From: a virus
Taxonomy: Duplodnaviria > Caudoviricetes
Length of the DNA: 39,357 nucleotides
Strand: one strand, 5' to 3'
IMG/VR virus record: IMGVR_UViG_3300048897_000022
Coordinates: 1 to 39,357 of that record
The notes under the pieces are model-generated. The model was not told the origin of the DNA and searched no databases. It saw only the letters and a program-made list of their open reading frames with translations. Positions 6,799 to 27,435 of the stretch are shown here, one piece after another (the stretch's first letter is position 1; the number at the start of each line of letters is the position of its first letter). The translations under genes and the position numbers were made by a program.

Positions 6799-8379
6799 AT
6801 GCTCCCAATCCCATCGCCATTAAGCTATTTCCACGATAATGGCGCACGCGCCTTAGACAGTGGATTTATTTACATTGGCCAGGTTAACCAGAACCCCGAG
6901 ACCGCGCCCCAAACCATTTATTGGGATGCTGAAGGCACGCAGCCAGCCGCGCAACCACTCCGTACATCTGACGGCTATATTGTTCGCAATGGCGCCCCGG
7001 CGAACGTCTTTATCCTCAACGCATATTCGATGACGATCAAGAACAAAGCGGGCGGCCTGATCTTCTACGGGCCAGACTCGACTCAGTTCGACTCAAATAT
7101 CATTGCAGGCGGGTTGATCAATAATATCCAGCGCATTGTTCAGAACCTTGCCGAACTGCGCACCCTGAGCAAATCAGTGTATGCCTTTGCCTTTGTGGCT
7201 GGCAACACAGTGAAAGGCGACGGCGGCGGCGGCGATTATTACTATGACGCCTCCGATATCACCAGCACCGATAATGGAGGTGATGTCATCGTGGCTGCTG
7301 ATGGTGGCCGCTGGAAGTTCATGACGATGAAATTCCGTCCTGCCGGCTTCTTCACTGGCAACGGCAGCAAGGCGCAGCGCTTTGGTGACAAGGTTTTCAT
7401 GGGCGATGCTGTGGCTGGCGATGGGGCCTTCCCTGGCACCGCGCACGATTGGCTGTACACCTACATGAACCCATATTTCTCGGCTGCTGGGAACACTCCA
7501 CCGAGTAACACGACTGGCGTTGTCGCGCTGGCCGGCGGCACTGGCTCGCCCTTCCCTGGCGAAGCCATCCTGGGTGGCGCTTCCTCTGCTGCCGCGGCCT
7601 CGCCAGGCGGCAATGCAATCGGGGTGCAGGGATATGGCGTGGCGCAAAGCGGCCTCGGCGGCGACTTCGCTTGGGGCTTCTACGGCGAAGGCCACCGCGC
7701 CACATCGACCACCGGGAATTGTTACGGAGCCGAGATCTGCGTTGTGAATCGTGGCACAGTCAAGGTGAATACCCCGTATTTCAGCGAATCCGGCGCGACC
7801 ATCGGCCTTCAGGTTGATTCCGGCGTCGGCTTCACTTCGGCGCAGATGTCGGGTCTTGCGAAAGCGTCGAGTGCCATCGTGGTCGTTGAGAACGCAGACG
7901 GCTCGATCCCTTTCCTGAACGGCCTGGTGTTCCAGGCGACCTCGCTGGATGGCACGAACGGCAACGATGCTGGCCACGGCGACGCCATCGTCATGGCGAA
8001 AGGCCACCGTGTGCGCTGGTACAAGCCCGGCAACGTGTCTGGCCCGACCATCACGAGCGATGTCAATGCTGGAGTGAACACGAACCTGGCATTCACGGAT
8101 TTCGGCTTGCAAGTGCAGAACTCATCGGGGCAGGCCATCGCGCAATTTGCCAATTCCGCAGCCTCTAAAAATGGCTTCAACTTCAACACGGCAGACGGCA
8201 GCGGCCATATCAGCATTGAGGCTGTCGGCGCCGATACAAACATTGACGTCAAATTGACGCCAAAAGGCACTGGCTTGGTAAAATTCGGGACATTTACTTC
8301 CAGCTCTGGATCGCCTAACGGTTTTATTCTGGTCCTGGACGCCGCAGGCAACCAACGTAAACTCGCAACCATTCCGTAA
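6799..8379 (+). CDS. Tailspike/receptor-binding protein with P22-type head-binding N-domain
   Basis: ATG 6799 after AAGGA; N-terminal GFIYIGQVNQNP...AQPLRT...GYIV motif; GDGGGGDYYYD...GGRWK module. Confidence 0.8.
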   Translation: MLPIPSPLSYFHDNGARALDSGFIYIGQVNQNPETAPQTIYWDAEGTQPAAQPLRTSDGYIVRNGAPANVFILNAYSMTIKNKAGGLIFYGPDSTQFDSNIIAGGLINNIQRIVQNLAELRTLSKSVYAFAFVAGNTVKGDGGGGDYYYDASDITSTDNGGDVIVAADGGRWKFMTMKFRPAGFFTGNGSKAQRFGDKVFMGDAVAGDGAFPGTAHDWLYTYMNPYFSAAGNTPPSNTTGVVALAGGTGSPFPGEAILGGASSAAAASPGGNAIGVQGYGVAQSGLGGDFAWGFYGEGHRATSTTGNCYGAEICVVNRGTVKVNTPYFSESGATIGLQVDSGVGFTSAQMSGLAKASSAIVVVENADGSIPFLNGLVFQATSLDGTNGNDAGHGDAIVMAKGHRVRWYKPGNVSGPTITSDVNAGVNTNLAFTDFGLQVQNSSGQAIAQFANSAASKNGFNFNTADGSGHISIEAVGADTNIDVKLTPKGTGLVKFGTFTSSSGSPNGFILVLDAAGNQRKLATIP

Positions 8380-8684: not shown

Positions 8685-9103
8685 ACACCTGGCGCAATCG
8701 CCTCTTTGTAGGTCTCATCCTGCTGCTTGCTCAAAAATTGCATGCTGAGGTGAATGCGCCCTTACCAAACACTCAAGGCTGGGCGCTGATCTTTTTCGGA
8801 TCGGCGGCCACTCTGGAAGGTTTGATATGCACGATCATCCCGAAAAAACTGGATGGTCAACTATGCGATCACATGCTGATTCTGGGATTAGTGTGTGTGA
8901 TTGTTGATGCCCTGGGATTCCTCGGCTACATGACCAAAACCCCGTCTATCTATTACAACACGGTCATGTGGGGGATCAGTTATGCGCAGTGGCTACGACT
9001 TCTTTTTGTGGACAGTGACCATGCTTTATCTGTATGGACTGCTCTGGTTCGGCGTACTCATTCATTGGGTGCGATACTCAATCATCAAAAGGCGAGCGAA
9101 TGA
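8681..9103 (+). CDS. Multi-pass (about 4 TM) membrane protein, function unknown
   Basis: Four hydrophobic segments; translationally coupled to the peptide upstream and the holin downstream. Confidence 0.75.
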   Translation: MNTWRNRLFVGLILLLAQKLHAEVNAPLPNTQGWALIFFGSAATLEGLICTIIPKKLDGQLCDHMLILGLVCVIVDALGFLGYMTKTPSIYYNTVMWGISYAQWLRLLFVDSDHALSVWTALVRRTHSLGAILNHQKASE

Positions 9104-9348
9104 GCGAGCAAGAAAGCGCAAAAGCGGCTGTCGAGACGGCCCTAAGCAATCCGAAAGTTTCTGGCATCGTCGCGGCTCTGACTAGTTCGTCAGGCGCCGC
9201 CGCGCTATTCAGCAGTTTGAATTCCGTGCTGGGGGCGATTTCCCTTGCCCTGGGGTGCGTGGTGGCGGTCTACACGATCCGCATCCTGCATACCAAGAGC
9301 AAAATTTATGACCGAATGCATCGTGAAGGCGAGAGCCTGAAGGAGTGA
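9100..9348 (+). CDS. Putative holin
   Basis: 82 aa, 1-2 TM segments, charged C-tail, immediately before the endolysin. Confidence 0.6.
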   Translation: MSEQESAKAAVETALSNPKVSGIVAALTSSSGAAALFSSLNSVLGAISLALGCVVAVYTIRILHTKSKIYDRMHREGESLKE

Positions 9349-14763: not shown

Positions 14764-15267
14764 TCATCGGATATCCAAGCGCGTGCCTTGTGCCAGCATG
14801 GCGCCTGGCACTTCACGGCCTTCCTTGATGGCTTCTGCGATGGCCTTTTTATCCGGCGCTGGTGGCGGCGGTTCAGGCTGACGCATGAAGCTTGCAGGAA
14901 TCAGATTCGGCTCGAAGATTTCTACGCCGGCCAGATTCTTCTTGATGGTCAGTGCGAAGTGCGGGCATTCGATCTTTTGCACGCCAGCGATTTCCATGCA
15001 GGTCTTCGTGTACTCGCGCAGGTTCGCGGCCCGCTTCTCGATGGCCTTGCGACGGTCGGCCATTTCGCGCTCGGCGTTCTTGATCGCTTCCGCTGTCGCT
15101 TCCAGGTTCTTGATGGCATAGGCCACGTTCTGCGCTTTCAGTTCCAGCGGATAGGCTTCTGCTTCCAGCGTGTCAGCAATCGCCTGCTCGTCAGTCTGTA
15201 TGTCCATCAGATGATCAACGACAGCGCGGTACTCGTGAGAGATTTGATAAAGGCTCATAGCAGTCAT
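14764..15267 (-). CDS. Siphovirus Gp157-family protein
   Basis: MSLYQI...KAQNVAYAIKNLEA...PDKKAIAEAIKEGREVPGA. Confidence 0.85.
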   Translation of the reverse strand: MTAMSLYQISHEYRAVVDHLMDIQTDEQAIADTLEAEAYPLELKAQNVAYAIKNLEATAEAIKNAEREMADRRKAIEKRAANLREYTKTCMEIAGVQKIECPHFALTIKKNLAGVEIFEPNLIPASFMRQPEPPPPAPDKKAIAEAIKEGREVPGAMLAQGTRLDIR

Positions 15268-15276
15268 GGTTATTCC

Positions 15277-15606
15277 TTAGTTGTCGGATTTGCTGCCGAG
15301 CATCTGCATGCTTTCGGCAATGATGTCGGTGGCGTACTTTTCGATGCCGTCCTTGTCGGTGTACTTGCGCGTCTGCAAGCGTCCTTCCACATAGACGCTG
15401 TGGCCCTTCTTTAGGTACTGACTGACAATCTCAGCCAGCTTGCCAAAGAAGCTGATGCGATGCCATTCTGTAACTTGGTCCCGGTCTTTTGGTTTATAGC
15501 TAGTTGCCACTGAAATATTGGCAATAGCATCGCCAGAAGCCTGATAACGGATTTCAGGATCACGCCCCAACGATCCGACAATAATCACTTTATTTACTGA
15601 TGCCAT
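15277..15606 (-). CDS. ssb: Single-stranded DNA-binding protein (OB fold only, no acidic tail)
   Basis: [17 protein letters not shown]...TEWHRI...[12 protein letters not shown]. Confidence 0.95.
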
Positions 15607-16057
15607 TTCTTCTTACTCCCTCTTTTCGTGCGATATATCCGGCAGTTTGCCGCTTGATTCCAAAGTCTTTTGCGATGGACGCGTACTTTTCACCTAACTG
15701 TGCGCGTCGAATGACTTCAGCCCTTTCTTGATCTGTCAATTTTGAATGCGGCAGCATACTCCCCTTGGCTTGCCTTCCTTTTGAGACTGCGTCATCCATA
15801 TTTTCCTGGCGACTACCAACAAAAAGATGTGCTGGGTTGACACATTTCCGGTTGTCACATTTATGGCAAACATCAAGCCCATCAGGGATAGGCCCAATAA
15901 AGGATGCATATGAAAGGCGATGTGCGTACTGCGAACGGCGCTGAAAGTTAATTCGGGCATATCCATTGGCCTGCACACAACCGGACCATTCCCAGCAGCC
16001 AGTTTTATCAATGATAGAGACGCTAGCCTTGATTCTTTGTTGAGCAATTTCCATCAT
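15590..16057 (-). CDS. HNH endonuclease with C-terminal HTH
   Basis: GCWEW...AHRLSY...[16 protein letters not shown]...N. Confidence 0.9.
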
Positions 16058-16671
16058 TGGCCTTTCTTGAGTTCGCCCATGCGGGCATTAAAATGGCCCG
16101 TGTACAGGCGTTTCTGGTCGTTCGGCAAGCCGTTCATCAGCTTAGTAAGGGATGGCACGTCCTGCGCAGCGTTGAACTGTGCCAGGATTTCAGCATCTGG
16201 CTCGCCGGCTGCATCCTGTTGTGGCTTTGCGCGCTTCGGTGCGACTTGATGCGTCTCAGCATCTGGATCGCTACTAGTTTCTTCGGTTGGGATGCAGAAT
16301 GCTTGGAAGGCAGCGTATTTGTATGCAATGGACATAGCCTTGTTCGTTGCCTTGTCACCGCTATCCATGGCCTCACCGAACATCGCCACAGTATGGCGGC
16401 TCCCATCAATGGCACTGACGAAATCAAACTCCGCCTGCACGGTGACGTAGAACAAAACGCCGCCGTTTTTGGTTTCACGCTCATGGCTTGAGCGGTTCAG
16501 ACAGCGCGGGAGAATTAGAAGCTTGTGCTTTGCCAGGAGTGGAGATAGAGCATTGTAGACAGCATCGATACCGCGAAACATGAAGCCCTGCTGTTGATTC
16601 TTGCTGGACTTGCTGATGCCGATTTGAGCAAGTTCTTCTTGAACGGCATTGATTGCTTTGTAGACTTCCAT
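16054..16671 (-). CDS. erf: ERF-family ssDNA annealing protein
   Basis: FMFRGIDAVYNAL...GEAMDSGDKATNKAMSIAYKYA...DPDA; AAGGA RBS before ATG 16671. Confidence 0.9.
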   Translation of the reverse strand: MEVYKAINAVQEELAQIGISKSSKNQQQGFMFRGIDAVYNALSPLLAKHKLLILPRCLNRSSHERETKNGGVLFYVTVQAEFDFVSAIDGSRHTVAMFGEAMDSGDKATNKAMSIAYKYAAFQAFCIPTEETSSDPDAETHQVAPKRAKPQQDAAGEPDAEILAQFNAAQDVPSLTKLMNGLPNDQKRLYTGHFNARMGELKKGQ

Positions 16672-16723
16672 GATATTCCTTAGTGTTGTGTAAGGCCAAG
16701 AGGCCAAATTCCTGTGGTACAGC

Positions 16724-16879
16724 TTAGAACGGGATGCGCCCCGATGCAAGGTCTTCGTAGTGCTGCGCTCGCTGCTCTGGCGTCATTTCTATACGCTGCG
16801 TGGTGAATGGGACCGGCTTGCCGGTGACTGGGTCGCGCGTTGTCAGTTCCGGCTTTGATTGTTCAGCATTCGCTTGCAT
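16724..16879 (-). CDS. 51-aa peptide ending ...EDLASGRIPF (not in ORF track)
   Basis: GGAG RBS; start overlaps the stop of the upstream ORF (TAATG). Confidence 0.65.
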   Translation of the reverse strand: MQANAEQSKPELTTRDPVTGKPVPFTTQRIEMTPEQRAQHYEDLASGRIPF

Positions 16880-17052
16880 TATTCTTCTCCATCATCATGC
16901 ATGCTTGCATATGCCGACTCAGCAGCAGTCAAGGCACGCAACGACTCTTCCGCTTCAATCGCATGATCAAGCACCTTTTCCCACGTACTTTTGCTGATCA
17001 TGATGCCTTGATTGAAGTCTTTCTTTACCTGCTCAAGTTCTGCTAATGTCAT
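16879..17052 (-). CDS. Hypothetical 57-aa protein
   Basis: GGAG RBS directly after the U-tract of the leftward RNA element. Confidence 0.65.
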   Translation of the reverse strand: MTLAELEQVKKDFNQGIMISKSTWEKVLDHAIEAEESLRALTAAESAYASMHDDGEE

Positions 17053-17065
17053 TTCGTTTTCTCCA

Positions 17066-17176
17066 ATAAAAAAGGCTTCGTGAAACCCTCTCCCATTGCT
17101 GGGTTGGACTAACGGATTGGTATCCGCCAGAGGGTTCACGAAGCCTTACCAAGTTTTCCCGGAGTCCAAGCCGGAC
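17066..17176 (-). ncRNA. c4/CI-like antisense/attenuator RNA element (leftward operon)
   Basis: 19-bp stem 17072-17091/17129-17147 enclosing two hairpins; U6 tail; unpaired segments complementary to upstream sites at 17147-17152 and 17163-17169. Confidence 0.7.
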
Positions 17177-17271
17177 AATCAATATATCAAGTGCCGAGCT
17201 ACTGTAGCAAGCACTTTATGCGCTGGCACTTACGCGGCCAGCTTACGCCCGGCACTGTGGAGCCTACCGGG

Positions 17272-17415
17272 TTAGGTGGCAAAACAGATCAGCACGAAGC
17301 CAGCGATAAAAACAGCGACATTGGCAAAAGTAAATTCAGCCTCATCCGCTGCGTTATACCCAGTGCAAGCCGCCAACGCGCAACCAATACCGAACATGAT
17401 CATCTGCGCGCTCAT
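17272..17415 (-). CDS. 47-aa two-TM membrane peptide
   Basis: ATGA overlap with upstream ORF; two hydrophobic stretches. Confidence 0.55.
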   Translation of the reverse strand: MSAQMIMFGIGCALAACTGYNAADEAEFTFANVAVFIAGFVLICFAT

Positions 17416-17519
17416 GCCATCCTCGCTACAAGATATCCCGCCAAGATCCCCGCAGCCACGATGATGAAGCAGGCGGCTGCGCTTGGGGTGCGGCGGGTGG
17501 TGGGGATTCGCTGGATCAT
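17412..17519 (-). CDS. 35-aa single-TM peptide MIQRIPTTRRTPSAAACFIIVAAGILAGYLVARMA
   Basis: ATGA overlaps on both sides. Confidence 0.55.
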   Translation of the reverse strand: MIQRIPTTRRTPSAAACFIIVAAGILAGYLVARMA

Positions 17520-17794
17520 TTGCAGCCCTCAAGTGGGTTGACGTCTTCGCTGGTGCCGAATTCGCCATATGGGTTGTCGTAGTCGTCGTAATAGTCGTTC
17601 ATGTATCCGGCCATTCCGAAGTAGCCGCCGCCCACACTGGCGCCTGCACGACGTTGCGTTGGCGCAGCAGCCTTGCAAGCGTCAACAGTCAAGTGTTCAG
17701 TCTTCCACTTGCCATCAACCTTGTTTGTCTCGCCGGCGCCAGCATCAACCAGCTTGCCGCACTTGCAGCACGAAGCTGCAAATTTGTTTTTCAT
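17516..17794 (-). CDS. Hypothetical protein (CxxC N-terminus, acidic/Tyr C-terminus)
   Basis: GAGG RBS; MKNKFAASCCKCGKLVDAGAG. Confidence 0.65.
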   Translation of the reverse strand: MKNKFAASCCKCGKLVDAGAGETNKVDGKWKTEHLTVDACKAAAPTQRRAGASVGGGYFGMAGYMNDYYDDYDNPYGEFGTSEDVNPLEGCK

Positions 17795-17919
17795 GCTGCA
17801 CCTCGCTGTCGTTGCTGCTGCTCCCACCGCTTGTAAGCCGCCACAGCCTCACGAATGCGGCGCTGCTTCCATTCGTATTCGGCGCGGTCGGCGGCTGCCT
17901 GGTCTTGCTGCTGGCTCAA
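17791..17919 (-). CDS. 42-aa hypothetical protein (TTG start)
   Basis: AAGGAG RBS; ATGA overlap with the next gene. Confidence 0.5.
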   Translation of the reverse strand: MSQQQDQAAADRAEYEWKQRRIREAVAAYKRWEQQQRQRGAA

Positions 17920-17997
17920 TTGGTTCTCCTTGTATGGTTGGCTTTCAGTGCCAAAGCCGCGCCGTGCGCGGCGTGTGGTACTGCTGGGCGAGGTCGG

Positions 17998-18192
17998 TTA
18001 CTTTTGCGGCTCTGCGCGATCACAAGGCTCATCGTCTTGAATGCGAGCGCGCAAGAACTGCTGCCTATTCAATTTCGGGTATTTTTCAAACTCCGAGCGT
18101 TCAGCATCAGAAAAGTGCAAGTGACCACTCTTGCTATTCTCCGATTCTTTGATACGGAAATTTACCTCTATGACTTTGTTTTCGACTTTCAT
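17998..18192 (-). CDS. Hypothetical protein
   Basis: AAGGA RBS; 64 aa. Confidence 0.55.
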   Translation of the reverse strand: MKVENKVIEVNFRIKESENSKSGHLHFSDAERSEFEKYPKLNRQQFLRARIQDDEPCDRAEPQK

Positions 18193-18226
18193 GATTTCCT
18201 TTCGATGATGCGCCTCGAAGGGCGCG

Positions 18227-18709
18227 TTAGATTCCTACTGGGTTCAATACTGCGAATTCGCCAAAGTGCTTGATCGCTGCCTTGTTGTAAGCATGCGCCG
18301 CTTCGTCCACGGTGTCATGCGTGCCCAGGTCGTAGCGCTCGCCGTCGAACGTGATGCGCGCCTGAAATTTACCGGAGCGATGGGCGCGCACTCCCTTGGC
18401 CTGGATAGGCTTGCCTTCCATCCCTTTACGATTCCAGTTGTTCTGTTGATTGGTCGCTGGGCGCAGATTCTCGATGCGGTTGTTATCCCGTTTGCCGTCG
18501 CGATGGTCGATGCGCACTCGCGGCAATTCCCCGTGCACGTAAAGCCATGCCATATGATGCGCGAAGAATCGTCGTTCGCCCACCATCACGTACACGTAGC
18601 CTTTCACGCTTGGGTGGCCGACCTCCTGCCCATGTCGGCCTGTGAATACGCCCGTTTCCGGGTCGTATTCCAGGTGATGCATCAGTTCTTTTTGAGTGAT
18701 CGTGTTCAT
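18227..18709 (-). CDS. HNH endonuclease with AP2 domain
   Basis: YDPETGVF...IDHRDGKRDNNRIENLR...N; KGV...FQARI...LG...AAHAYNKAAIKHFGEFA. Confidence 0.9.
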   Translation of the reverse strand: MNTITQKELMHHLEYDPETGVFTGRHGQEVGHPSVKGYVYVMVGERRFFAHHMAWLYVHGELPRVRIDHRDGKRDNNRIENLRPATNQQNNWNRKGMEGKPIQAKGVRAHRSGKFQARITFDGERYDLGTHDTVDEAAHAYNKAAIKHFGEFAVLNPVGI

Positions 18710-18724
18710 GTCGGCACGGGGTTG

Positions 18725-18934
18725 TTAGGCGATTTTGCGAACTTCAATTTGATAGGTAGGCGTGCCGTTTTCATTGACGGTTACAACGTTTCCAGGTTCA
18801 ACAAAGTCAATGATTGCCTTAAGGCAGTCGCTAGTAACGTCTTGCGGGTTGCCGGTGAAGGCATTGCCCGCTTTGTTCACTTTTCCAGCGTTAATGCGCT
18901 TGGCCAGTGCAGTGCATGCAATTCGAATGTTCAT
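18725..18934 (-). CDS. Hypothetical protein
   Basis: 69-aa ORF with DVTSDCLKA motif in the leftward operon. Confidence 0.6.
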   Translation of the reverse strand: MNIRIACTALAKRINAGKVNKAGNAFTGNPQDVTSDCLKAIIDFVEPGNVVTVNENGTPTYQIEVRKIA

Positions 18935-18944
18935 AAATTCTTCC

Positions 18945-18965
18945 AAATAGCCCGCCGAAGCGGGC
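18945..18965 (-). terminator. UUCG-capped hairpin / weak terminator after the first leftward gene
   Basis: Minus strand gcccgc-TTCG-gcgggc-tattt. Confidence 0.5.
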
Positions 18966-18973
18966 CGCAAGTT

Positions 18974-19114
18974 TTAGGCTACGCTGAACAGCAGCATGGT
19001 CACGGAACGGCGGATTACTTCGTCGCCGTTAGCGATTGCGGCGGTGACTTCTGCGGCGGTCGTCTTAGCCAGCTCAGCGTAAGTTTCGATTGCCAGTTTC
19101 AATGCTGCATCCAT
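18974..19114 (-). CDS. 46-aa first gene of the leftward operon (not in ORF track)
   Basis: AAGGGA RBS; MDAALKLAIETYAELAKTTAAEV... Confidence 0.6.
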   Translation of the reverse strand: MDAALKLAIETYAELAKTTAAEVTAAIANGDEVIRRSVTMLLFSVA

Positions 19115-19164
19115 TTTGATTCCCTTTCATTCCCGCCGCGCTGAATTGCGCTGCCATGTAGAGA

Positions 19165-19193
19165 ACTATACTCCTGTGCTTTTTGCGAGTCAA
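19165..19193 (-). promoter_or_regulatory. Leftward early promoter (PL-like)
   Basis: TTGACT (19193-19188), 17 nt spacer, TATAGT (19170-19165). Confidence 0.85.
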
Positions 19194-19237
19194 CCAATTT
19201 ATGTAAAAATTTCTTCATGATAGGTTGAATAAAGTTC

Positions 19238-19266
19238 TTGCTCAATTCATCCGAGTAGGTTAATCT
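19238..19266 (+). promoter_or_regulatory. Rightward early promoter (PR-like)
   Basis: TTGCTC, 17 nt spacer, TAATCT, upstream of the Cro-like gene. Confidence 0.6.
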
Positions 19267-19299
19267 ACCAATACCAACTCACCAACCGAAAGGAAAGAC

Positions 19300-19527
19300 A
19301 TGGCAACGAAACAGGAAATCGATATCCGCGCAGAAGTCCGTGCGCATATCGCAAGGAAGTACAAGACACAGAGCGCAGCTGCTAAGGCGTGGGGCTATTC
19401 CAACGCCTATGTTTCTGCTGTGCTTTGCGGTAAAAAGATGATGCCTGATGTAATGGCAAACGAGGCCGGCTATGAGCTTGTTCAGGCCGCCGCTGAATGG
19501 CATAAGATTAAAAAGGTGACGAAATGA
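19300..19527 (+). CDS. Cro-like HTH regulator
   Basis: TQSAAAKAWGYSNAYVSAVLCG XRE-type HTH; first rightward gene. Confidence 0.75.
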   Translation: MATKQEIDIRAEVRAHIARKYKTQSAAAKAWGYSNAYVSAVLCGKKMMPDVMANEAGYELVQAAAEWHKIKKVTK

Positions 19528-19724
19528 AGCCGAAGCTGACGCCGTGGTTTTCGGCAAAGGTGAAGCCTGTGCGCGTGGGAGAGTACCAATGCAAAGACAG
19601 CGCATATCCAACGTGGTTGTGGGATGGGGTTGTCTGGCGGTGCCCCCAATTTGGGAATGTCTGTTCCCAGCAAGATCGAATTTGGCGCGGCCTTGCCGAA
19701 GACCCTGCAAAGGCTACGCCGTGA
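19524..19724 (+). CDS. Hypothetical protein
   Basis: LTPWF..VKPVRVGEY...WRGL small phage module. Confidence 0.7.
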   Translation: MKPKLTPWFSAKVKPVRVGEYQCKDSAYPTWLWDGVVWRCPQFGNVCSQQDRIWRGLAEDPAKATP

Positions 19725-20185
19725 GAGCGAAATTCCCCACGCGCACAATCCTCCTGCGCACAGAGCAGCAGCGAGAGCAGGCGCTTGCGCTGTTGCGGAA
19801 TGTGCCGCTGGACGCTGCAAAGCCGCTGGAGCTGGTGGTGAGCGAGCAGCAGAAGAAGCGCGGCCCCGACGCCAATAGCTTGATGTGGGCTGGCCCACTG
19901 CGCGACCTGGCCGAGCAAGGATGGCTTGAGCAGCGCCGCTATAGCGCCGAAGCCTGGCATGAGCTGGCGAAGCGCGAGTTTCTGCCAGAGGAATACGACC
20001 CCGAGCTATGCCTGAAAGGCTATCGCAAATGGGAAACATTGCCGGGCAGTGACGAGCGTATTCTGGTGGGCAGCACGACCATGCTCACCGTCAAAGGCAT
20101 GGCTCTGCATATCGAGCAGCTTCACGCCCTGGGTGGATCGCTGGGCGTCCAATTCCACGCAAATCCTAACGAGAGGTTTTCATGA
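19721..20185 (+). CDS. ninB: NinB/Orf-like recombination protein
   Basis: GTG start overlapping upstream stop; KKRGPDANSLMW...AEAWHE...GSTTMLTV...IEQLHA. Confidence 0.7.
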   Translation: MRAKFPTRTILLRTEQQREQALALLRNVPLDAAKPLELVVSEQQKKRGPDANSLMWAGPLRDLAEQGWLEQRRYSAEAWHELAKREFLPEEYDPELCLKGYRKWETLPGSDERILVGSTTMLTVKGMALHIEQLHALGGSLGVQFHANPNERFS

Positions 20186-20463
20186 CACTGAGGATAAAAA
20201 AGCCGGGCGTTGTGTTCATCAATGGAAACAGAATCACAATCTCCCACTTCAGTTTCGATACAGACGGGAGGGCAGAGGACGTGACCCAAGACGAAATTAC
20301 CGCATGCGCGCGTGATTACGTTATGCAGCAGTTCGCAAAGGTTCTCGGCACATCGGTGCCGGCCATTGAAGAATGCTCCGTTTCGCCTGTCAGCATGGCC
20401 TCTGAGCGCGAAGCCGAAATGGAAGCGTACCTGCTTATCAACCGTTGCCAAGATAACTCATAG
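20182..20463 (+). CDS. Hypothetical protein
   Basis: ATGA-coupled ORF. Confidence 0.6.
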   Translation: MTLRIKKPGVVFINGNRITISHFSFDTDGRAEDVTQDEITACARDYVMQQFAKVLGTSVPAIEECSVSPVSMASEREAEMEAYLLINRCQDNS

Positions 20464-20471
20464 GAGAAAAC

Positions 20472-20657
20472 ATGCTTGACTCAACCGACATCACCGCATT
20501 GCAAGCACTGCCGGCCGACATCCCGCGCACGCTGGTCGCCATCAGCGAAGACCCGCGCGCCGCTGAACTGGTTGCCCTGTTCAACAAAGCCGACGAACGC
20601 GGCAAGCACTGCATGATCGCTATGGCGCGCTGCATGCCCTGCATGAGGGGTGGCTGA
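20472..20657 (+). CDS. Hypothetical protein
   Basis: AGGAG RBS. Confidence 0.6.
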   Translation: MLDSTDITALQALPADIPRTLVAISEDPRAAELVALFNKADERGKHCMIAMARCMPCMRGG

Positions 20658-21064
20658 TGCTGGCTCGCAAAAAGCCCCTGGCCAGGTCCGGCTTCAAGCC
20701 CGCAGTATTCGGCGCCGTGCGCGCAACTGGCAAGCTAAGGTCGAAGCGGATGAAGTCGGCCAGCCAGAAGATGACGCCAATTCGGAAGAGCGCCAAGGGT
20801 GAGGAATGCACGCTGCGTATCCCTGGCGTATGCAACGGAGACAACAGCACTGTGGTTTGGTGTCACAGCAACAATATCCGAGACGGGAAAGGCATGGGCC
20901 TCAAGTCGCGCGATGAAGAGGGCTGCTATGGCTGTTCATCTTGCCATGCATGGATTGATGGTGGTTATGTAAAGGATGGTCCAAGGCATTGGATGGAGCA
21001 ATATTTTGACTTAGCACGCGCTGAAAGCCAAGCAATTCTAAAACGAAAAGGACTTATGAAATGA
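20657..21064 (+). CDS. DUF1364/YbcO-like zinc-binding nuclease-fold protein
   Basis: SAKGEECTLRIPGVCNGD.STVVWCH...KGMGLK...GCSSCH. Confidence 0.85.
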   Translation: MLARKKPLARSGFKPAVFGAVRATGKLRSKRMKSASQKMTPIRKSAKGEECTLRIPGVCNGDNSTVVWCHSNNIRDGKGMGLKSRDEEGCYGCSSCHAWIDGGYVKDGPRHWMEQYFDLARAESQAILKRKGLMK

Positions 21065-21354
21065 ATACAAAAGCTGAAAATGCAATTGACCCATTACAGC
21101 CTGAGTATTGGAACAAGCCTTTATGGTTTGTGTATGGTAGCGAAGCATGGCCGATGGTCCTTTGCGCAATGATAAAAAATAATGCTGGTGTGAATATCTG
21201 GGGTTACAGCGTATGGAAACGCCAGCCTGGGTTTCGAACCTTGGGGCAGGATGCGGGAGCTTGGATTAATCGCGAGGACGCAGTTGCTTTTGCTGATCAA
21301 CAGCACATGCTTGATTATCTCAAAAAGATCACGACCCCAAAGGTGAAGCATTGA
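21061..21354 (+). CDS. Hypothetical protein (AT-richer)
   Basis: ATGA-coupled ORF. Confidence 0.6.
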   Translation: MNTKAENAIDPLQPEYWNKPLWFVYGSEAWPMVLCAMIKNNAGVNIWGYSVWKRQPGFRTLGQDAGAWINREDAVAFADQQHMLDYLKKITTPKVKH

Positions 21355-21668
21355 GAGCCGCAAAAATAGACGCCAACCAGCCTGAAATCGTCCAGGCGCT
21401 GCGCAAAGCCGGTGCCAGCGTCCAACCCTTGCACACGGTCGGATGCGGCGTCCCTGACCTGCTATGCGGCCTTCCTGGCGTGTCATTTCTGGTCGAGGTG
21501 AAAGACGGTGCAAAGCCGCCCAGCGCGCAGAAGCTGACGCCAGATCAGGAAAAGTGGCATGCCGCCTGGAAGGGTCCAGTATTCATCGTGCGCGATGTTG
21601 CGCAAGCGCTACACCTTTTGGCTGATATCAAAGCCAACCAACTATTGAAGGAAATTTCCAAGTGGTGA
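21351..21668 (+). CDS. VRR-NUC-like PD-(D/E)xK nuclease
   Basis: DANQPEIV...GVPDLL...LVEVK...LTPDQEKW. Confidence 0.8.
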   Translation: MRAAKIDANQPEIVQALRKAGASVQPLHTVGCGVPDLLCGLPGVSFLVEVKDGAKPPSAQKLTPDQEKWHAAWKGPVFIVRDVAQALHLLADIKANQLLKEISKW

Positions 21669-22138
21669 TCGCAAAGAAAATTTCATATGAGGAGGTATCT
21701 AAGGTCTTCTCATATGACCCAGAAACTGGGAATCTTATTTGGATAAAAAATTTCCACTCTCCGCGAATAGGAACGGTGGCAGGAACCAAAGACTGGCGTG
21801 GATACGTCTATGTATCTTGGGGAAGAAAGCGATATCACGCGGCTAGAATCATATGGGTGCTAGTCCATGGCTCTATTGATGACTCTCTTGTTATTGACCA
21901 TATAAATAGGAACCCATCAGATAATCGGATATCAAATCTTAGGCTTGTTACGCAAGCAATAAATGTGAGCAACAGGAGTGGTAGGAGATCATCTGGGTAT
22001 AGGCGTGATCCTAAATTTTATACGAAGCATCGGAGCGGTAAATTTCAGGTGCTTGTGAAAGGGAAATACATTGGTCTGGTTGACTCTGAGGATGAGGCCA
22101 AACTGTTGGTAAATAAAACTTTGGAGCAAATGCCATGA
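21662..22138 (+). CDS. HNH endonuclease
   Basis: YDPETG...IDHINRNPSDNRISNLR...N; AT-richer. Confidence 0.9.
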   Translation: MVIAKKISYEEVSKVFSYDPETGNLIWIKNFHSPRIGTVAGTKDWRGYVYVSWGRKRYHAARIIWVLVHGSIDDSLVIDHINRNPSDNRISNLRLVTQAINVSNRSGRRSSGYRRDPKFYTKHRSGKFQVLVKGKYIGLVDSEDEAKLLVNKTLEQMP

Positions 22139-22260
22139 ACCACGACGAAGACGAAGACCTGTGCATGTTCGACCCTGGAAGCTGGCAGATTGCGCTGGCG
22201 TGCGCGCTGGTGGCTGTGGTGCTTCTGCTGGCCGGTGTGGTGCTGAAGGAGGTGCTGTGA
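22135..22260 (+). CDS. 41-aa single-TM peptide
   Basis: MNHDEDEDLCMFDPGSWQIALACALVAVVLLLAGVVLKEVL; overlaps both neighbours. Confidence 0.55.
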   Translation: MNHDEDEDLCMFDPGSWQIALACALVAVVLLLAGVVLKEVL

Positions 22261-22913
22261 ATCCTGTGATTATTGGCGATGCCACGCTGTACCTAGGCGA
22301 CTGTGCCGAAATCCTGCCGGCATTGAAAGCTGACGCAATTTGCAGCGATCCACCGTATGGATTAGGCGACAAGATGACAGGTGGAACAAAGCTTTTTCAG
22401 ACTGGTGAGGGCGGTATGCAAACTCTTGGCGCATGGGATGCGCAGCCGGTACCTGGATTGCTGGAAATGTTGCAGCCAGTTGCGCCCATTTTGATGCTAT
22501 GGGGCGGGAATTATTATTCGGTACCGGCCTCGCGTGGATGGCTGGTATGGGTCAAGATTAACGGCCTGCAGACTATGGCAAGCGTTGAGCTCTGCTGGAC
22601 GAATATCGACATGAACAGTAAGCATTTCCTTCATCCTGTAAATGGATGGCAGCGAGATCATCCAACTCAAAAACCGGTCGACCTGATGCACTGGTGCCTA
22701 TCATTTATTCCAAAGGCGGAGACGATTCTCGACCCATTCATGGGAAGTGGAACTACGGGCGTGGCGGCTGTCATGTCTGGCAGGAAGTTTATCGGCATCG
22801 AGCGCAAGGAAAAGTATTTTGATGCTGCCTGCAAGCGTATCGAACGCGCCATCGCTCAGGGCCAACTTTTCGCACCTGAACCCATCAAACAAGTACAGGA
22901 GTCCCTACTATGA
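22257..22913 (+). CDS. Orphan DNA amino-methyltransferase (N6A/N4C, beta class)
   Basis: DPPY before HPTQKP and LDPFMGSGTTG; GTG start with AGGAGG RBS. Confidence 0.9.
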   Translation: MNPVIIGDATLYLGDCAEILPALKADAICSDPPYGLGDKMTGGTKLFQTGEGGMQTLGAWDAQPVPGLLEMLQPVAPILMLWGGNYYSVPASRGWLVWVKINGLQTMASVELCWTNIDMNSKHFLHPVNGWQRDHPTQKPVDLMHWCLSFIPKAETILDPFMGSGTTGVAAVMSGRKFIGIERKEKYFDAACKRIERAIAQGQLFAPEPIKQVQESLL

Positions 22914-23068
22914 TGCACTCATACGAAAACCGCACCTGGCGCACCGAGCGGCGCCGCGCATGGCCCCGCATCCTCGGCTGGGTCGTGGCTGTCATTCCGT
23001 TCATTCTGTTGATGGCAGCAGTTTTTTACGGCGAATGGTTCATGGAGTACTTGCGGAAGCTGCAATGA
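22910..23068 (+). CDS. 52-aa single-TM peptide
   Basis: ATGA overlap; ILGWVVAVIPFILLMAAVFY. Confidence 0.55.
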   Translation: MMHSYENRTWRTERRRAWPRILGWVVAVIPFILLMAAVFYGEWFMEYLRKLQ

Positions 23069-23084
23069 TGGACTAATATGCACG

Positions 23085-23239
23085 CATCAGTACCGGCAAG
23101 TGCTGATGACGAAGAAACATTGACAGTGTAGTAGCCCAGAATTTTTAGGAGTGCCGACAAAATCGGTTGCGCGTGTTCACTGTCCGCGTGTAACCGAGGC
23201 TTGCCGGCCCGGCACCCCTAAGTGTTCTGGGCTTTTTTT
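23085..23239 (+). ncRNA. c4/CI-like antisense/attenuator RNA element (rightward operon)
   Basis: About 100-nt interrupted stem 23133-23233 plus T7; loop CACTGTC and bulge CTTGCCGG complementary to upstream GACAGTG and CCGGCAAG. Confidence 0.75.
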
Positions 23240-23491
23240 CGTCTGTACTTGCTGTGCTGCATGCTCCGCACTTCCCGAGGGAGCAGCTACGCGAACAAGG
23301 TAGTGGGTGGCCCAGTTCATCGGGTTGGCTGAAAGGCCGGGGTTTGTTCAGGGGTATGTGTCCGTGGCTCGTCTCACAGGCAGTACCAAGCTTCTTTACC
23401 CTTGGGGGGTATGGGGGGCTTTGGGGATCGGAGCCGGGTCTGAACTCTAGGCAATAACGAAAAGCAGTTAAATGTAGATAAGAGGAATTTA

Positions 23492-23722
23492 ATGAATCTT
23501 AAAGAATACTGGCGTCAGAACTTCCACTTGAGCGGTTACGGGATAACGAAAATCGCTTGCCACGCTATCGGCATGAATTGGCCGCCGCAAAAAGGATGGC
23601 TAAAGCACAAAGGCCACATCAAAATGACGCCGGAATTGATCGAAATTTTCGAGCGTCATATTCCTGAAGACGTATTGCGCGACCGCAAAGACAAGGCATC
23701 GAAAGGGATCAAATGGAACTGA
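23492..23722 (+). CDS. Hypothetical protein
   Basis: GAGG RBS; WPPQKGWL motif. Confidence 0.65.
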   Translation: MNLKEYWRQNFHLSGYGITKIACHAIGMNWPPQKGWLKHKGHIKMTPELIEIFERHIPEDVLRDRKDKASKGIKWN

Positions 23723-24396
23723 CGATTTCTGCACAACAGAAGACCATGACAAGCCGCGAGATTGCGGATTTGGTCGAGTCCCGGCACGCAGATGTGTGCA
23801 TCTGCATTGAGCGCCTGATGGCGACTGGCGCGATTCAGGGGTATGCGGCAATGCCGTACACCCATCCTCAGAATGGCCAGCAGTACCGCGAATACCATAT
23901 CGGGCAGCGTGACAGCTATGTGATCGTTGCTCAGCTTTCGCCGCAGTTCACTGCGCGCCTTGTAGATCGCTGGCAAGAACTTGAGCAGGCCGCAAGCAAG
24001 CCGCGCGAACTGACCCGCATGGAGTTAATCCAGATCGCCATGGATGCGGAGAAGGAGAATATCCAACTGCGCGCTGACTTGGCCATGGCGGCGCCGGCTG
24101 TGGAGTTCGTTGGCCGTTACGTCGAAAGCGAAACCGGCAGCATGGGCTTTCGCCAGGTCTGCAAGCTGCTGAAAGCCAAGGAGCCGGAATTCCGCGCCTT
24201 CCTGCATGACAACCAGATCATGTACAAGCTTGGTGGCGAGTGGGTGCCCTACGCTGCGCACATCGACGCCGGCCGCTTTGAAGTGAAGACCGGGACTGCC
24301 AATGAACATGCTTACTCGCAATCGAAGTTCACGCCAAAGGGCGTCGAATGGATTGCCGGTGAGTGGGCCAAGCACCAGATCAAGGAGGTGGCATGA
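23713..24396 (+). CDS. Rha-N + ANT/KilAC antirepressor-like protein
   Basis: TMTSREIADLVESRH...FTARLVDRWQELE; C-terminal FRQVCKLL...KFTPKGVEWI. Confidence 0.85.
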   Translation: MELTISAQQKTMTSREIADLVESRHADVCICIERLMATGAIQGYAAMPYTHPQNGQQYREYHIGQRDSYVIVAQLSPQFTARLVDRWQELEQAASKPRELTRMELIQIAMDAEKENIQLRADLAMAAPAVEFVGRYVESETGSMGFRQVCKLLKAKEPEFRAFLHDNQIMYKLGGEWVPYAAHIDAGRFEVKTGTANEHAYSQSKFTPKGVEWIAGEWAKHQIKEVA

Positions 24397-24701
24397 GAGT
24401 CCTTCCTGACTGGGTCCCGGCCGAAGCCTGGGACGGCTACGTAGACATGCGCAAGAAGATCCGGAAGCCGATGACCGATCGCGCAATCTCTCTGGCGGTG
24501 AATACGCTGACGAAGCTGCGCGACGAAGGCTACGAGCCTGGCGCGGTGTTGGATCAGTCGGTGATGAACTCTTGGCAGGGCCTGTTCCCAATCCAAGAAG
24601 ACCGCCGCACTCAGCGCGCCCAATCGGTAAAACTTAGCCCCCTGAGTAAGACCGGCCAAGCGACCGCCAATAACCTGCTGGCATGGCTGGAGGAAGCATG
24701 A
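24393..24701 (+). CDS. Replication-initiator C-terminal-domain-only protein
   Basis: LPDWVPAEAW..YVDMRKKI.KPMT...VLDQSVMNSWQGLF resembles the C-domain of lambdoid initiators; own AAGGAGG RBS. Confidence 0.65.
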   Translation: MRVLPDWVPAEAWDGYVDMRKKIRKPMTDRAISLAVNTLTKLRDEGYEPGAVLDQSVMNSWQGLFPIQEDRRTQRAQSVKLSPLSKTGQATANNLLAWLEEA

Positions 24702-24898
24702 AAGTTCGACAGGAATTCATTAATAAGTGGAATGATGACAGTGAGGCATGGTCGCATCTTAATGCGAACTTCATTGATAATCGTGGGCTAATTTCTCCTA
24801 AAGAAGGACATATACCTAGCGAGGAAGATATGGGCGCGATCATATATCTTTGCTATGAGTGGGATTATGGTTATGAGGGGCATAGTAATGCTGGATAG
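24698..24898 (+). CDS. Hypothetical protein (AT-richer insert)
   Basis: GGAGG RBS, ATGA overlap. Confidence 0.6.
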   Translation: MKVRQEFINKWNDDSEAWSHLNANFIDNRGLISPKEGHIPSEEDMGAIIYLCYEWDYGYEGHSNAG

Positions 24899-25490
24899 CC
24901 TGGAAGAAAAGCAGCGCTTCGCCTTGATGCTGACTGGCCTGTCCGAGTACTACCGCCAAGAGGTCAGCAAGGCCATGGCCGGCATCTACTGGGAGGGCCT
25001 AAAGCAGTACGATATCGGCGCCATCGAAAAGGCCGCACATGCCCACATGCAAAGCCCTGACGAGAATGGCCGCTGGTTTCCGAAGATCAGCGACCTGGCG
25101 AAGTATCTGGAAGGCAGCACGACCGATCAAGCCAGCCTGGCATGGTCGAAGGTGGACAGGGCGCTTCGATCCGTGGGCACCTATGCCGACGTCATCTTCG
25201 ACGACCCGATTATCCACTGCGTGCTGCAAGACATGGGCGGCTGGGTTCCGTTGGGCGACAAGACCACGGACGAGTGGCCATTCGTCGCCAAGGAGTTCCA
25301 GACACGCTACCGGGGCTACAGGATGCGGACCAGCGAAGTCACGCCACCGCGCCGCCTGACCGGAATGGCAAACCTGCACAACGCCGCCTCAGGCATGCCG
25401 CTGGAGCCGGCCAGACTGATCGGCAGCGAAGAAAAATGCTTGGACTGGCTGCAAATCACGGCTGGCAATAAGCCTTTGCAATTGAAGTAA
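24888..25490 (+). CDS. DUF6475-type putative helicase loader/inhibitor (lambda P position)
   Basis: N-terminal helical domain with FPKISD; AWSKV...G.YADVIFDDPIIH...MGGW. Confidence 0.65.
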   Translation: MLDSLEEKQRFALMLTGLSEYYRQEVSKAMAGIYWEGLKQYDIGAIEKAAHAHMQSPDENGRWFPKISDLAKYLEGSTTDQASLAWSKVDRALRSVGTYADVIFDDPIIHCVLQDMGGWVPLGDKTTDEWPFVAKEFQTRYRGYRMRTSEVTPPRRLTGMANLHNAASGMPLEPARLIGSEEKCLDWLQITAGNKPLQLK

Positions 25491-27185: not shown

Positions 27186-27263
27186 GCGGCGGTGTAACTC
27201 AATTGGTAGAGTCATGGAGCACAAATCCTTGGTTGCTGGTTCGAATCCAGCCGCGGCCGCCCA
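27186..27263 (+). tRNA. Aberrant tRNA-like gene (Cys-like body, ACA at the anticodon position); possible pseudo-tRNA
   Basis: D-arm actc/gagt and T-arm gctgg-TTCGAAT-ccagc intact; anticodon loop GC-ACA-AA; mismatched acceptor. Confidence 0.6.
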
Positions 27264-27271
27264 GTTTCAAA

Positions 27272-27347
27272 TGTGATGTAGCTCAGACGGTAGAGCGCCG
27301 GATTGTTAATCCGGTGGTCCCTGGTTCGATCCCAGGCTTCACAGCCA
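27272..27347 (+). tRNA. tRNA-Asn(GTT)
   Basis: 76-nt cloverleaf; ccgga-TTGTTAA-tccgg; TTCGATC loop; G discriminator plus CCA. Confidence 0.93.
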
Positions 27348-27410
27348 AGTTTCTCCTTGCTGTTGGCCTAGCCAGACTTCGGCCCTGGCGCCTCCCTAGT
27401 TTGGACTTAG

Positions 27411-27435
27411 CCCCGCGCCATGCGGGGATTTTTTT
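27411..27435 (+). terminator. Intrinsic terminator ending the rightward early/tRNA transcript
   Basis: ccccgc-gccat-gcgggg-attttttt. Confidence 0.85.

Follow-up and report, generated by a model that had tools for sequence, protein, structure and literature searches.

Phage P4 CI is described as a small RNA derived from the leader of the operon with the replication genes, where it binds further upstream on newly made transcripts of the same strand and terminates them prematurely (PMC4825925), and C4 of phages P1 and P7 as a branched RNA on a long closing stem with an a' sequence in a loop, a b' sequence in a junction strand, complementary sites upstream and variable codes (PMC2864571). From a single promoter that precedes an antirepressor-like gene, Gifsy-1 produces IsrK in two forms, one short and terminated, the other long and resulting from read-through (PMC4825925). 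In plasmids pT181 and pIP501 an RNA forces a terminator on the initiator mRNA, and in ColIb-P9 repZ an RNA competes with an activating cis pairing (PMC8383071). The stretch of DNA analyzed here, termed the window, comprises all 39,357 nucleotides (nt) of IMG/VR virus record IMGVR_UViG_3300048897_000022 (Duplodnaviria; Caudoviricetes) and contains two leader RNA elements, left and right, in which upstream boxes b1 and a1 are complementary to downstream boxes b' and a' of the same RNA (Table 1). Both elements are members of a large family of phage RNAs that is uncatalogued in Rfam, and they represent a real and widespread variant of the C4/CI kind.

Two leader RNAs with long-range pairing codes

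The left leader consists, in order, of a 5' hairpin with b1, a1, a 19-bp stem (P1), the a' hairpin, an unpaired b', a tetraloop hairpin and a U-tract, and the right leader of a 5' hairpin with b1, a1, a 22-bp P1 stem, a long hairpin with a', b' and a U-tract. When the window was scanned for this architecture without a covariance model, exactly two sites were returned, corresponding to the left and right elements, and 25 shuffled windows produced six matches, none of which combined a score of at least 12 with a stem of at least 18 bp. The predicted folds of both RNAs are unusually stable (z-scores of -5.5 for the left and -7.1 for the right), with none of 200 shuffles equally stable in either case. 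An initial annotation made from the letters of this DNA had described eight boxes and two U-tracts carrying two different codes, all of which were located where it had placed them. The identical logic it had ascribed to the two elements holds for the box architecture, but in the right element a small hairpin partly holds b' and a1 lies 2-4 nt away from the stem. Its description of the codes as orthogonal was borne out by computed duplex energies, which ranged from -4.8 to -13.4 kcal/mol for cognate boxes and from +0.4 to -2.5 kcal/mol for cross combinations. The two codes of the window do not cross-pair; these energies cover the window, and orthogonality in other genomes with two elements rests on differing boxes.

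Amongst 87 distinct viral left-type copies the b1 triplet was the exact complement of b' in 84, compared with 22% of combinations between different copies, and a1:a' pairing of at least 6 bp was found in 92% of own pairs versus 25% of cross pairs. Every helix covaried in 65 left-type copies, both long-range helices included, and none of 500 shuffles reached the score. The same pattern applied to bacterial genomes gave a b1/b' complement in only five of 92 matches, four of these five being full elements and most matches there being due to chance. Thirteen b triplets occur in the left type, the commonest shared by 34 of 85 copies, and parsimony on a scaffold tree, rough because it was built from short sequences, counted 26 changes for b1 and the same number for b', all of them joint, together with approximately 37 changes in a. 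For the right type an a1:a' match of 6-8 bp was present in 13 of 14 copies with approximately 11 different a codes (assessed from pattern hits, as the register of this helix shifts in the alignment), and the b helix was 97.5% paired with three compensated positions in an alignment of 15 copies. Covariation shows that both pairings, as well as the long P1 stem, are under selection. The left-type b1 loop starts with a YUNR-type motif, known from antisense recognition loops, and this motif was itself part of the left-type search pattern.

A left-type pattern with free code positions identified 119 viral loci, with approximately 130 estimated in the collection, and approximately 100 distinct copies were found in total with two narrow patterns. 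The right type is rarer, with 15 aligned copies and 14 pattern hits. The left-type model R1 does not detect the right element of the window and model R2 detects no left-type copy, whilst L005 and the second copy of G010 appear intermediate between the types. Left-type elements were present in 18 Ralstonia phage records. When the window, the two element regions, four loci and 14 member loci were searched with Rfam, no family was placed on the elements. A blastn search of both element regions against cultured phages recovered no element, although a relative's copy used as query did find some, and the nearest cultured capsid relatives, Firinga and PfAn1, gave neither a model R1 match nor a scan match. 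No description of the family was found in the literature, where the supplements of PMC5737381, PMC2864571 and PMC10690425 could still contain one. The model-free scan recovers 23 of 29 known copies, missing approximately one in five, and genomes with twin elements may therefore be undercounted; irregular scan matches (e.g. in G005, G018 and G024) were discarded on visual inspection.

A promoter-like site scoring at least 8/12 was present at a fixed distance before 46 of 101 copies, compared with 3% of shuffles, and 96 of 101 have a U-tract of at least six T in 8 nt. The spacing between the -10 end and b1 in the left leader is the commonest in the family. PHROGs profiles were obtained for 109 of 177 downstream open reading frames (ORFs) and tallied by hand, with 'primosomal' and related families counted as initiators. 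The genes first led by 52 left-type copies comprised 29 initiators or loaders, four helicases, four recombinases, one SSB, eight HNH genes with nothing else named, three Ant-like regulators and three unknown genes. Right-type copies precede initiators, Ant, helicase, Sak4 or Erf, indicating that both types serve both operons. An HNH nuclease gene often stands first behind the U-tract (e.g. L257, L264, L270, L377), and homing nucleases may favor this slot or help the cassette to spread. In phage GP4 (L406, 18943-19896) the initiator ORF behind the element is only partly annotated in the RefSeq record, and its complete counterpart in L261 matches PHROGs of initiators.

Table 1. Features of the window at the two leader RNAs and in the surrounding early region
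Feature	Position	Strand	Basis or remark
Left leader promoter, sigma-70 type, TTGCTA-18-TATATT, extended -10	17181-17210	-	-10 end 11 nt before b1
Left leader RNA, whole	17067-17176	-	Model R1, 91 bits; folding
Left b1, TTGGACT, 5' hairpin loop	17163-17169	-	Covaries with b'
Left a1, TTGGTA, abuts P1 base	17147-17152	-	Sequence, folding geometry
Left a', TACCAA, hairpin loop	17117-17122	-	Sequence, folding
Left b', AGTCCAA, unpaired junction strand	17104-17110	-	Sequence, folding
Left U-tract (T6), closes terminator-like stem; ribosome-binding site immediately after	17068-17073	-	Sequence
Right leader promoter-like site, TTGCGG-17-TAATAT, 7/12	23051-23079	+	Weak alone; spacing common to 13/15 right-type copies
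Right leader RNA, whole	23084-23239	+	Folding, architecture scan, 15-sequence alignment A3
Right b1, CCGGCAAG	23093-23100	+	Sequence, alignment pairing
Right a1, GACAGTG	23122-23128	+	Sequence, covarying code
Right a', CACTGTC, hairpin loop	23178-23184	+	Sequence, folding
Right b', CTTGCCGG	23200-23207	+	Sequence, alignment pairing
Right U7 tract of terminator-like stem	23233-23239	+	Sequence, architecture scan
Operon after left leader: two small ORFs, Erf recombinase, HNH, SSB, Gp157/Gam-like	14764-17052	-	PHROGs, Pfam
Leftward promoter at divergence point, TTGACT-17-TATAGT, 10/12	19165-19193	-	Sequence match
Cro/MOR-like protein with single helix-turn-helix (HTH), 75 aa	19300-19527	+	PHROGs HTH, E 8e-5
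Operon after right leader, first gene a 76-aa ORF	23492-25490	+	PHROGs, Pfam
Rha/ANT-KilAC protein, right operon	23713-24396	+	PHROGs, Pfam
O-like initiator domain, right operon	24363-24701	+	PHROGs, Pfam
DUF6475 protein, likely helicase loader, right operon	ends 25490	+	Role inferred from a homologue's weak phrog_2289 match

A candidate kinetic attenuator and its alternatives

The leader, an RNA of 110-160 bases behind its own promoter-like site, probably functions as an attenuator whose default state is open. The b1 and a1 boxes, transcribed first, are predicted to pair with b' and a' before the P1 3' strand exists, so that the P1 5' strand would be trapped in a closed loop around which the polymerase-tethered 3' end could wind only with difficulty, and a leader held by these pairings would allow read-through into replication or recombination genes. 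In all 85 left-type copies compared the gap between a1 and P1 is zero or less (touch or overlap), approximately 25 bp from the a' loop, and the P1 5' strand measures 19 nt in 68 of them. As a1 touches or overlaps the P1 base, a1:a' and the terminator stem should exclude each other. Folding of nascent chains gave a dominant b1:b' helix in 71 of the 85 copies, whereas the minimum-energy fold at full length never contains it. For the left RNA of the window the nested fold with a1:a' and b1:b' is optimal at chain lengths 76-84, and at full length the terminator fold is ahead by 15 kcal/mol. The nascent folding of the left type is the signature of a kinetic antiterminator, and a cis switch of this kind quite probably operates.

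Transcripts that do terminate would free a stable RNA in which a' and b' are accessible, and this RNA would accumulate with time and genome copy number and bind b1 and a1 of new transcripts. Since such binding would precede the nascent a' and b', P1 would form and transcription would stop, the outcome being code-specific negative feedback on the supply of initiator or recombinase, and two codes in one genome would keep its two operons independent. The trans step is suggested by the geometry, as the targets are made 45-100 nt before their partners and the partners are exposed in the finished RNA, and by the many code changes together with the precedent of P4. The RNA switch would act alongside the Cro-like protein encoded by the window and not in its place. 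The cis switch together with this predicted trans feedback is considered the best single model and is, on balance, favored.

Several observations weigh against this model. The right RNA favors the a1:a' conformer only at chain lengths 101-109 and its b1:b' probability never exceeds 0.09; the nested form being favored only briefly, a kissing or kinetic antiterminator state has to be assumed for this RNA, and ViennaRNA does not score pseudoknots. The proposal in the initial annotation that cis pairing of a1 and b1 blocks the terminator is supported as far as both pairings are under selection and a1:a' is placed to compete with the terminator stem. The terminator has a large branched loop that is atypical for intrinsic terminators and a simple terminator scan made no call, and the released RNA retains its own b1, able to mask b' unless processed. 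Code columns are only moderately more variable than the stem (identity 0.54-0.59 versus 0.68), which leaves selection for new codes unproven. Furthermore, co-resident copies carry different codes in all seven multi-copy genomes or contigs, but as a b triplet is common to only 21% of pairs taken at random this is weak evidence.

A throttle acting in cis only, in which pairing would fix the proportion of read-through or impose a constant delay, nothing would act in trans and the codes would drift neutrally, would account for all of the measurements through cis pairing alone and fits the modest excess variability of the code columns. It is nonetheless a rather unlikely account, given that at least 26 paired b changes and approximately 37 a changes are many for neutral double changes in a helix of 6-7 bp, that both targets lie in an exposed loop or single strand, as in antisense recognition, and that a conserved pocket of the ligand-binding kind was not seen. 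The terminated RNA could instead be a trans-acting small RNA (sRNA) directed against host mRNAs or the leader of a rival phage, with a1 and b1 serving to mask or titrate it. Second b..a sites downstream are, however, at the level expected by chance in 97 copies (each box in 9/97 versus 9% expected, and both in order in 2/97), a b2-like covarying site over the ribosome-binding site was unsupported (eight matches versus 5.9 expected), placement before initiators is conserved, and rapid code change suits a self target more than a host target. Such an sRNA therefore seems improbable, even though the elements resemble in their construction the trans-acting C4 (PMC2864571), and the sharing of codes between phages, as for the commonest b triplet, would make cross-phage action possible.

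There is likewise little likelihood that a protein decides the switch, be it Rha/ANT, the Cro-like protein, an unrecognized N-like protein or a host chaperone or RNase, with the pairings as its substrate. Elements stand before unrelated gene sets and with unrelated virion modules, they have no common neighbor, and there is no excess of boxA in the window (nine sites versus 14.7 expected), against which can be set the many small early ORFs without a family, the Rha/ANT genes behind several copies and the processing of P4 CI RNA from a primary transcript (PMC4825925). Positive control of the type reported for IsrK (PMC4825925), in which the short RNA binds read-through transcripts and turns downstream expression on, finds an echo in a weak match of the left 5' hairpin to isrK (RF01394; 15.7 bits, cut-off 50, E 0.56). 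Binding at a1 and b1 would, however, free the P1 5' strand and hence favor the terminator, and no complementary site was found downstream, which makes this reading very improbable. IsrK itself activates translation in trans, unlike the proposed inhibitory leader.

Returning to the cis switch with trans feedback, an extension to an RNA-only system for copy number and incompatibility, run by soil and freshwater phages of the lambdoid type without CI or integrase, is a doubtful possibility. Were it true, self-terminating leaders would count genome copies and cap the supply of initiator and recombinase on separately coded channels; phages might persist as non-integrated carriers, and superinfecting phages sharing a code would be excluded, driving codes apart.

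Genomic setting, copy number and protein regulators

The window is the genome of a complete 39.4-kb phage with a 127-base terminal repeat and a completeness of 100%. PHROGs analysis of its ORFs indicated a P22-like virion module, and the nearest cultured capsid relatives are the Ralstonia phages Firinga, Hennie and RSK1, at 58%. The early region is lambdoid in layout, with recombination genes leftward and nin-like, Rha/ANT and replication genes rightward. PHROGs and Pfam place the left element before recombination genes and the right element before Rha/ANT and replication genes, in agreement with the initial annotation, and both divergent early regions do carry an element. However, the distance to the divergence point is approximately 2 kb for the left and 4 kb for the right element, and a promoter-like site directly precedes each of them. 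They therefore lead internal transcripts and are not the first attenuators on pL and pR.

No integrase, recombinase other than Erf, S24-type CI, N or Q was recognized in the window (PHROGs, 72 ORFs; Pfam, 144 + 29 ORFs), as the annotation had noted for CI, N and integrase, although a very divergent short N-like peptide could be missed by profile searches for N. What had been overlooked is the gene for the Cro/MOR-like HTH protein, for which nine homologues were found. Its structural model (predicted local distance difference test score of 75) had as best PDB match a TP901-1 CI-MOR chain, with an E-value of 0.12, and XRE-type domains dominate the list of matches. On the strength of this model, which resembles XRE/Cro domains, the phage likely encodes a protein repressor of the Cro kind, and the term protein-free was too strong.

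Of 27 near-complete carriers, 23 have a single copy and four (G010, G017, G037 and G027) have two or more, so that calling the elements twins overstated their usual number. G027 carries three copies (L467 6960, 10207 and 12041), each with its own code, and further multi-copy cases are G045 (39% complete) and G106:C18, the latter with three copies (22203, 29385 and 30707) and again own codes. Amongst these cases the copies are divergent in all but G027. The layout of the window is mirrored in G010, with the same left code before RecT and a different code before O/P homologues.

Fifty records picked by length (49 with the element, together with L004) contained two PF00589 matches, no S24 match and no provirus, whilst 45 of 50 Erf relatives without a model R1 match near Erf had S24. 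This difference is sharp, but the control consists mostly of proviruses and is not matched for habitat, and the element is absent, as is CI, from many lytic phages. These data support the conclusion that carriers are almost all without CI and integrase. Replacement of CI/N control, as originally proposed, nonetheless goes too far. GP4 has a left-type element before its initiator in addition to a Cro/C1 repressor and a tyrosine recombinase, and Gervaise is likewise described with a Cro/C1 repressor and tyrosine recombinase (PMC9144972). In L004, which shares the Cro-like gene, the left slot is occupied by different sequence, and the interval from 16840/16880 to 17222 is skipped in two short-sided contigs of soil run X5.

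In the slot corresponding to the right element, L004 has a promoter and an RNA (approximately 7590-7740, +) with the helix order of C4 and matching boxes upstream, with neither a U-tract nor an Rfam C4 match. This RNA is a third interchangeable type. The 53 bases just upstream of the left promoter in the window (17222-17274, -) are 98% identical in L004. This stretch borders the region in which cassettes differ between relatives and may serve in recombination or as a terminator. Behind the right element lies a structured stretch (23241-23490) unlike that in the same slot of L008, where a Betaproteobacteria-1 RNA (RF02932, 73 bits; 9008-9133, +) immediately follows a right-type element; sequence similar to this L008 stretch also occurs after L166, L167, L178 and the second copy of G010.

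The O-like initiator of the window is only approximately 100 aa long and matches initiator families over their C-terminal part. An initiator of this short form also follows the right-type elements of L166, L184 and L442, and the Rha/ANT protein encoded upstream might provide DNA binding. A small terminated RNA (27364-27435, +), weakly similar to SorX/MmgR (E 0.048), follows two tRNAs and contains TTGGACT; since L004 has a similar small RNA and no left element, the motif is probably family consensus there, and the RNA is possibly a late host-directed sRNA. The first of the two tRNA genes (27188-27259, +) is tRNA-like, with an irregular anticodon arm and 45 bits, and a regular tRNA lies next to it (27272-27344).

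Comparison with known RNA regulators

C4 has a second target, a2/b2, downstream over the controlled gene and is matured by RNase P. The elements described here share with C4 the long closing stem, a' in a loop, b' and the upstream complementary a1 and b1, but no second downstream target was detected, and this sets the family apart from the a2/b2 arrangement of P1. The helices of C4 follow the order P1, tetraloop hairpin, a' hairpin, b' (PMC2864571), whereas the left type has a' hairpin, b', tetraloop hairpin and the right type a bulge, the a' hairpin and b' in a small hairpin. C4 controls icd/ant, whereas these elements mostly control initiators and recombinases. The C4 model (RF01695, cut-off 45 bits) matched none of five genomes including the window at E ≤10 and none of 14 member loci. 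The c4-2 model (RF02944, cut-off 41 bits) had no match in the window and scored 20.7 bits in G027 away from its elements, and c4-a1b1 (RF03163) had no match at the elements. Both c4-a1b1 and isrK have two adjacent target hairpins, whereas here there is one 5' hairpin with b1 and a single-stranded a1. By score, helix order or second target, the elements belong to none of C4, c4-2, c4-a1b1 and isrK.

The put RNA of HK022, an N-less lambdoid phage, provides RNA-based antitermination in both early operons by modifying RNA polymerase, without a variable pairing code. In comparison with put, no Rfam family of any kind matched the elements here. The antisense RNAs of plasmids are transcribed from the opposite strand and are fully complementary to their targets, whereas here a single same-strand RNA carries two boxes of 6-8 nt.

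These elements define a widespread, uncatalogued family of phage regulatory RNAs with very strong pseudoknot covariation, found mostly before initiators in phages without CI and integrase, and as units of 110 bases they make limitation of replication and exclusion of rivals testable in vitro. If the trans step is true, one RNA would be sensor, terminator and inhibitor, and the family would offer dozens of natural orthogonal attenuators, which are hard to engineer, a 7 x 7 orthogonal set having been reported (PMC3753616).

P4 CI resembles the proposed system in using a same-strand RNA with an upstream complementary site in a replication operon leader; in P4 this RNA brings about termination and immunity in trans. 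P4 CI has a downstream seqC and separate terminators, whereas here there is no downstream target and termination would occur at the element's own closing stem and U-tract; furthermore P4 integrates, whereas 48 of the 50 records examined have no PF00589 match. In the best model, slightly more probable than not, the leaders would combine the logic of P4 CI and P1 C4 within a single self-terminating RNA, and the RNA released from them would exert the feedback.

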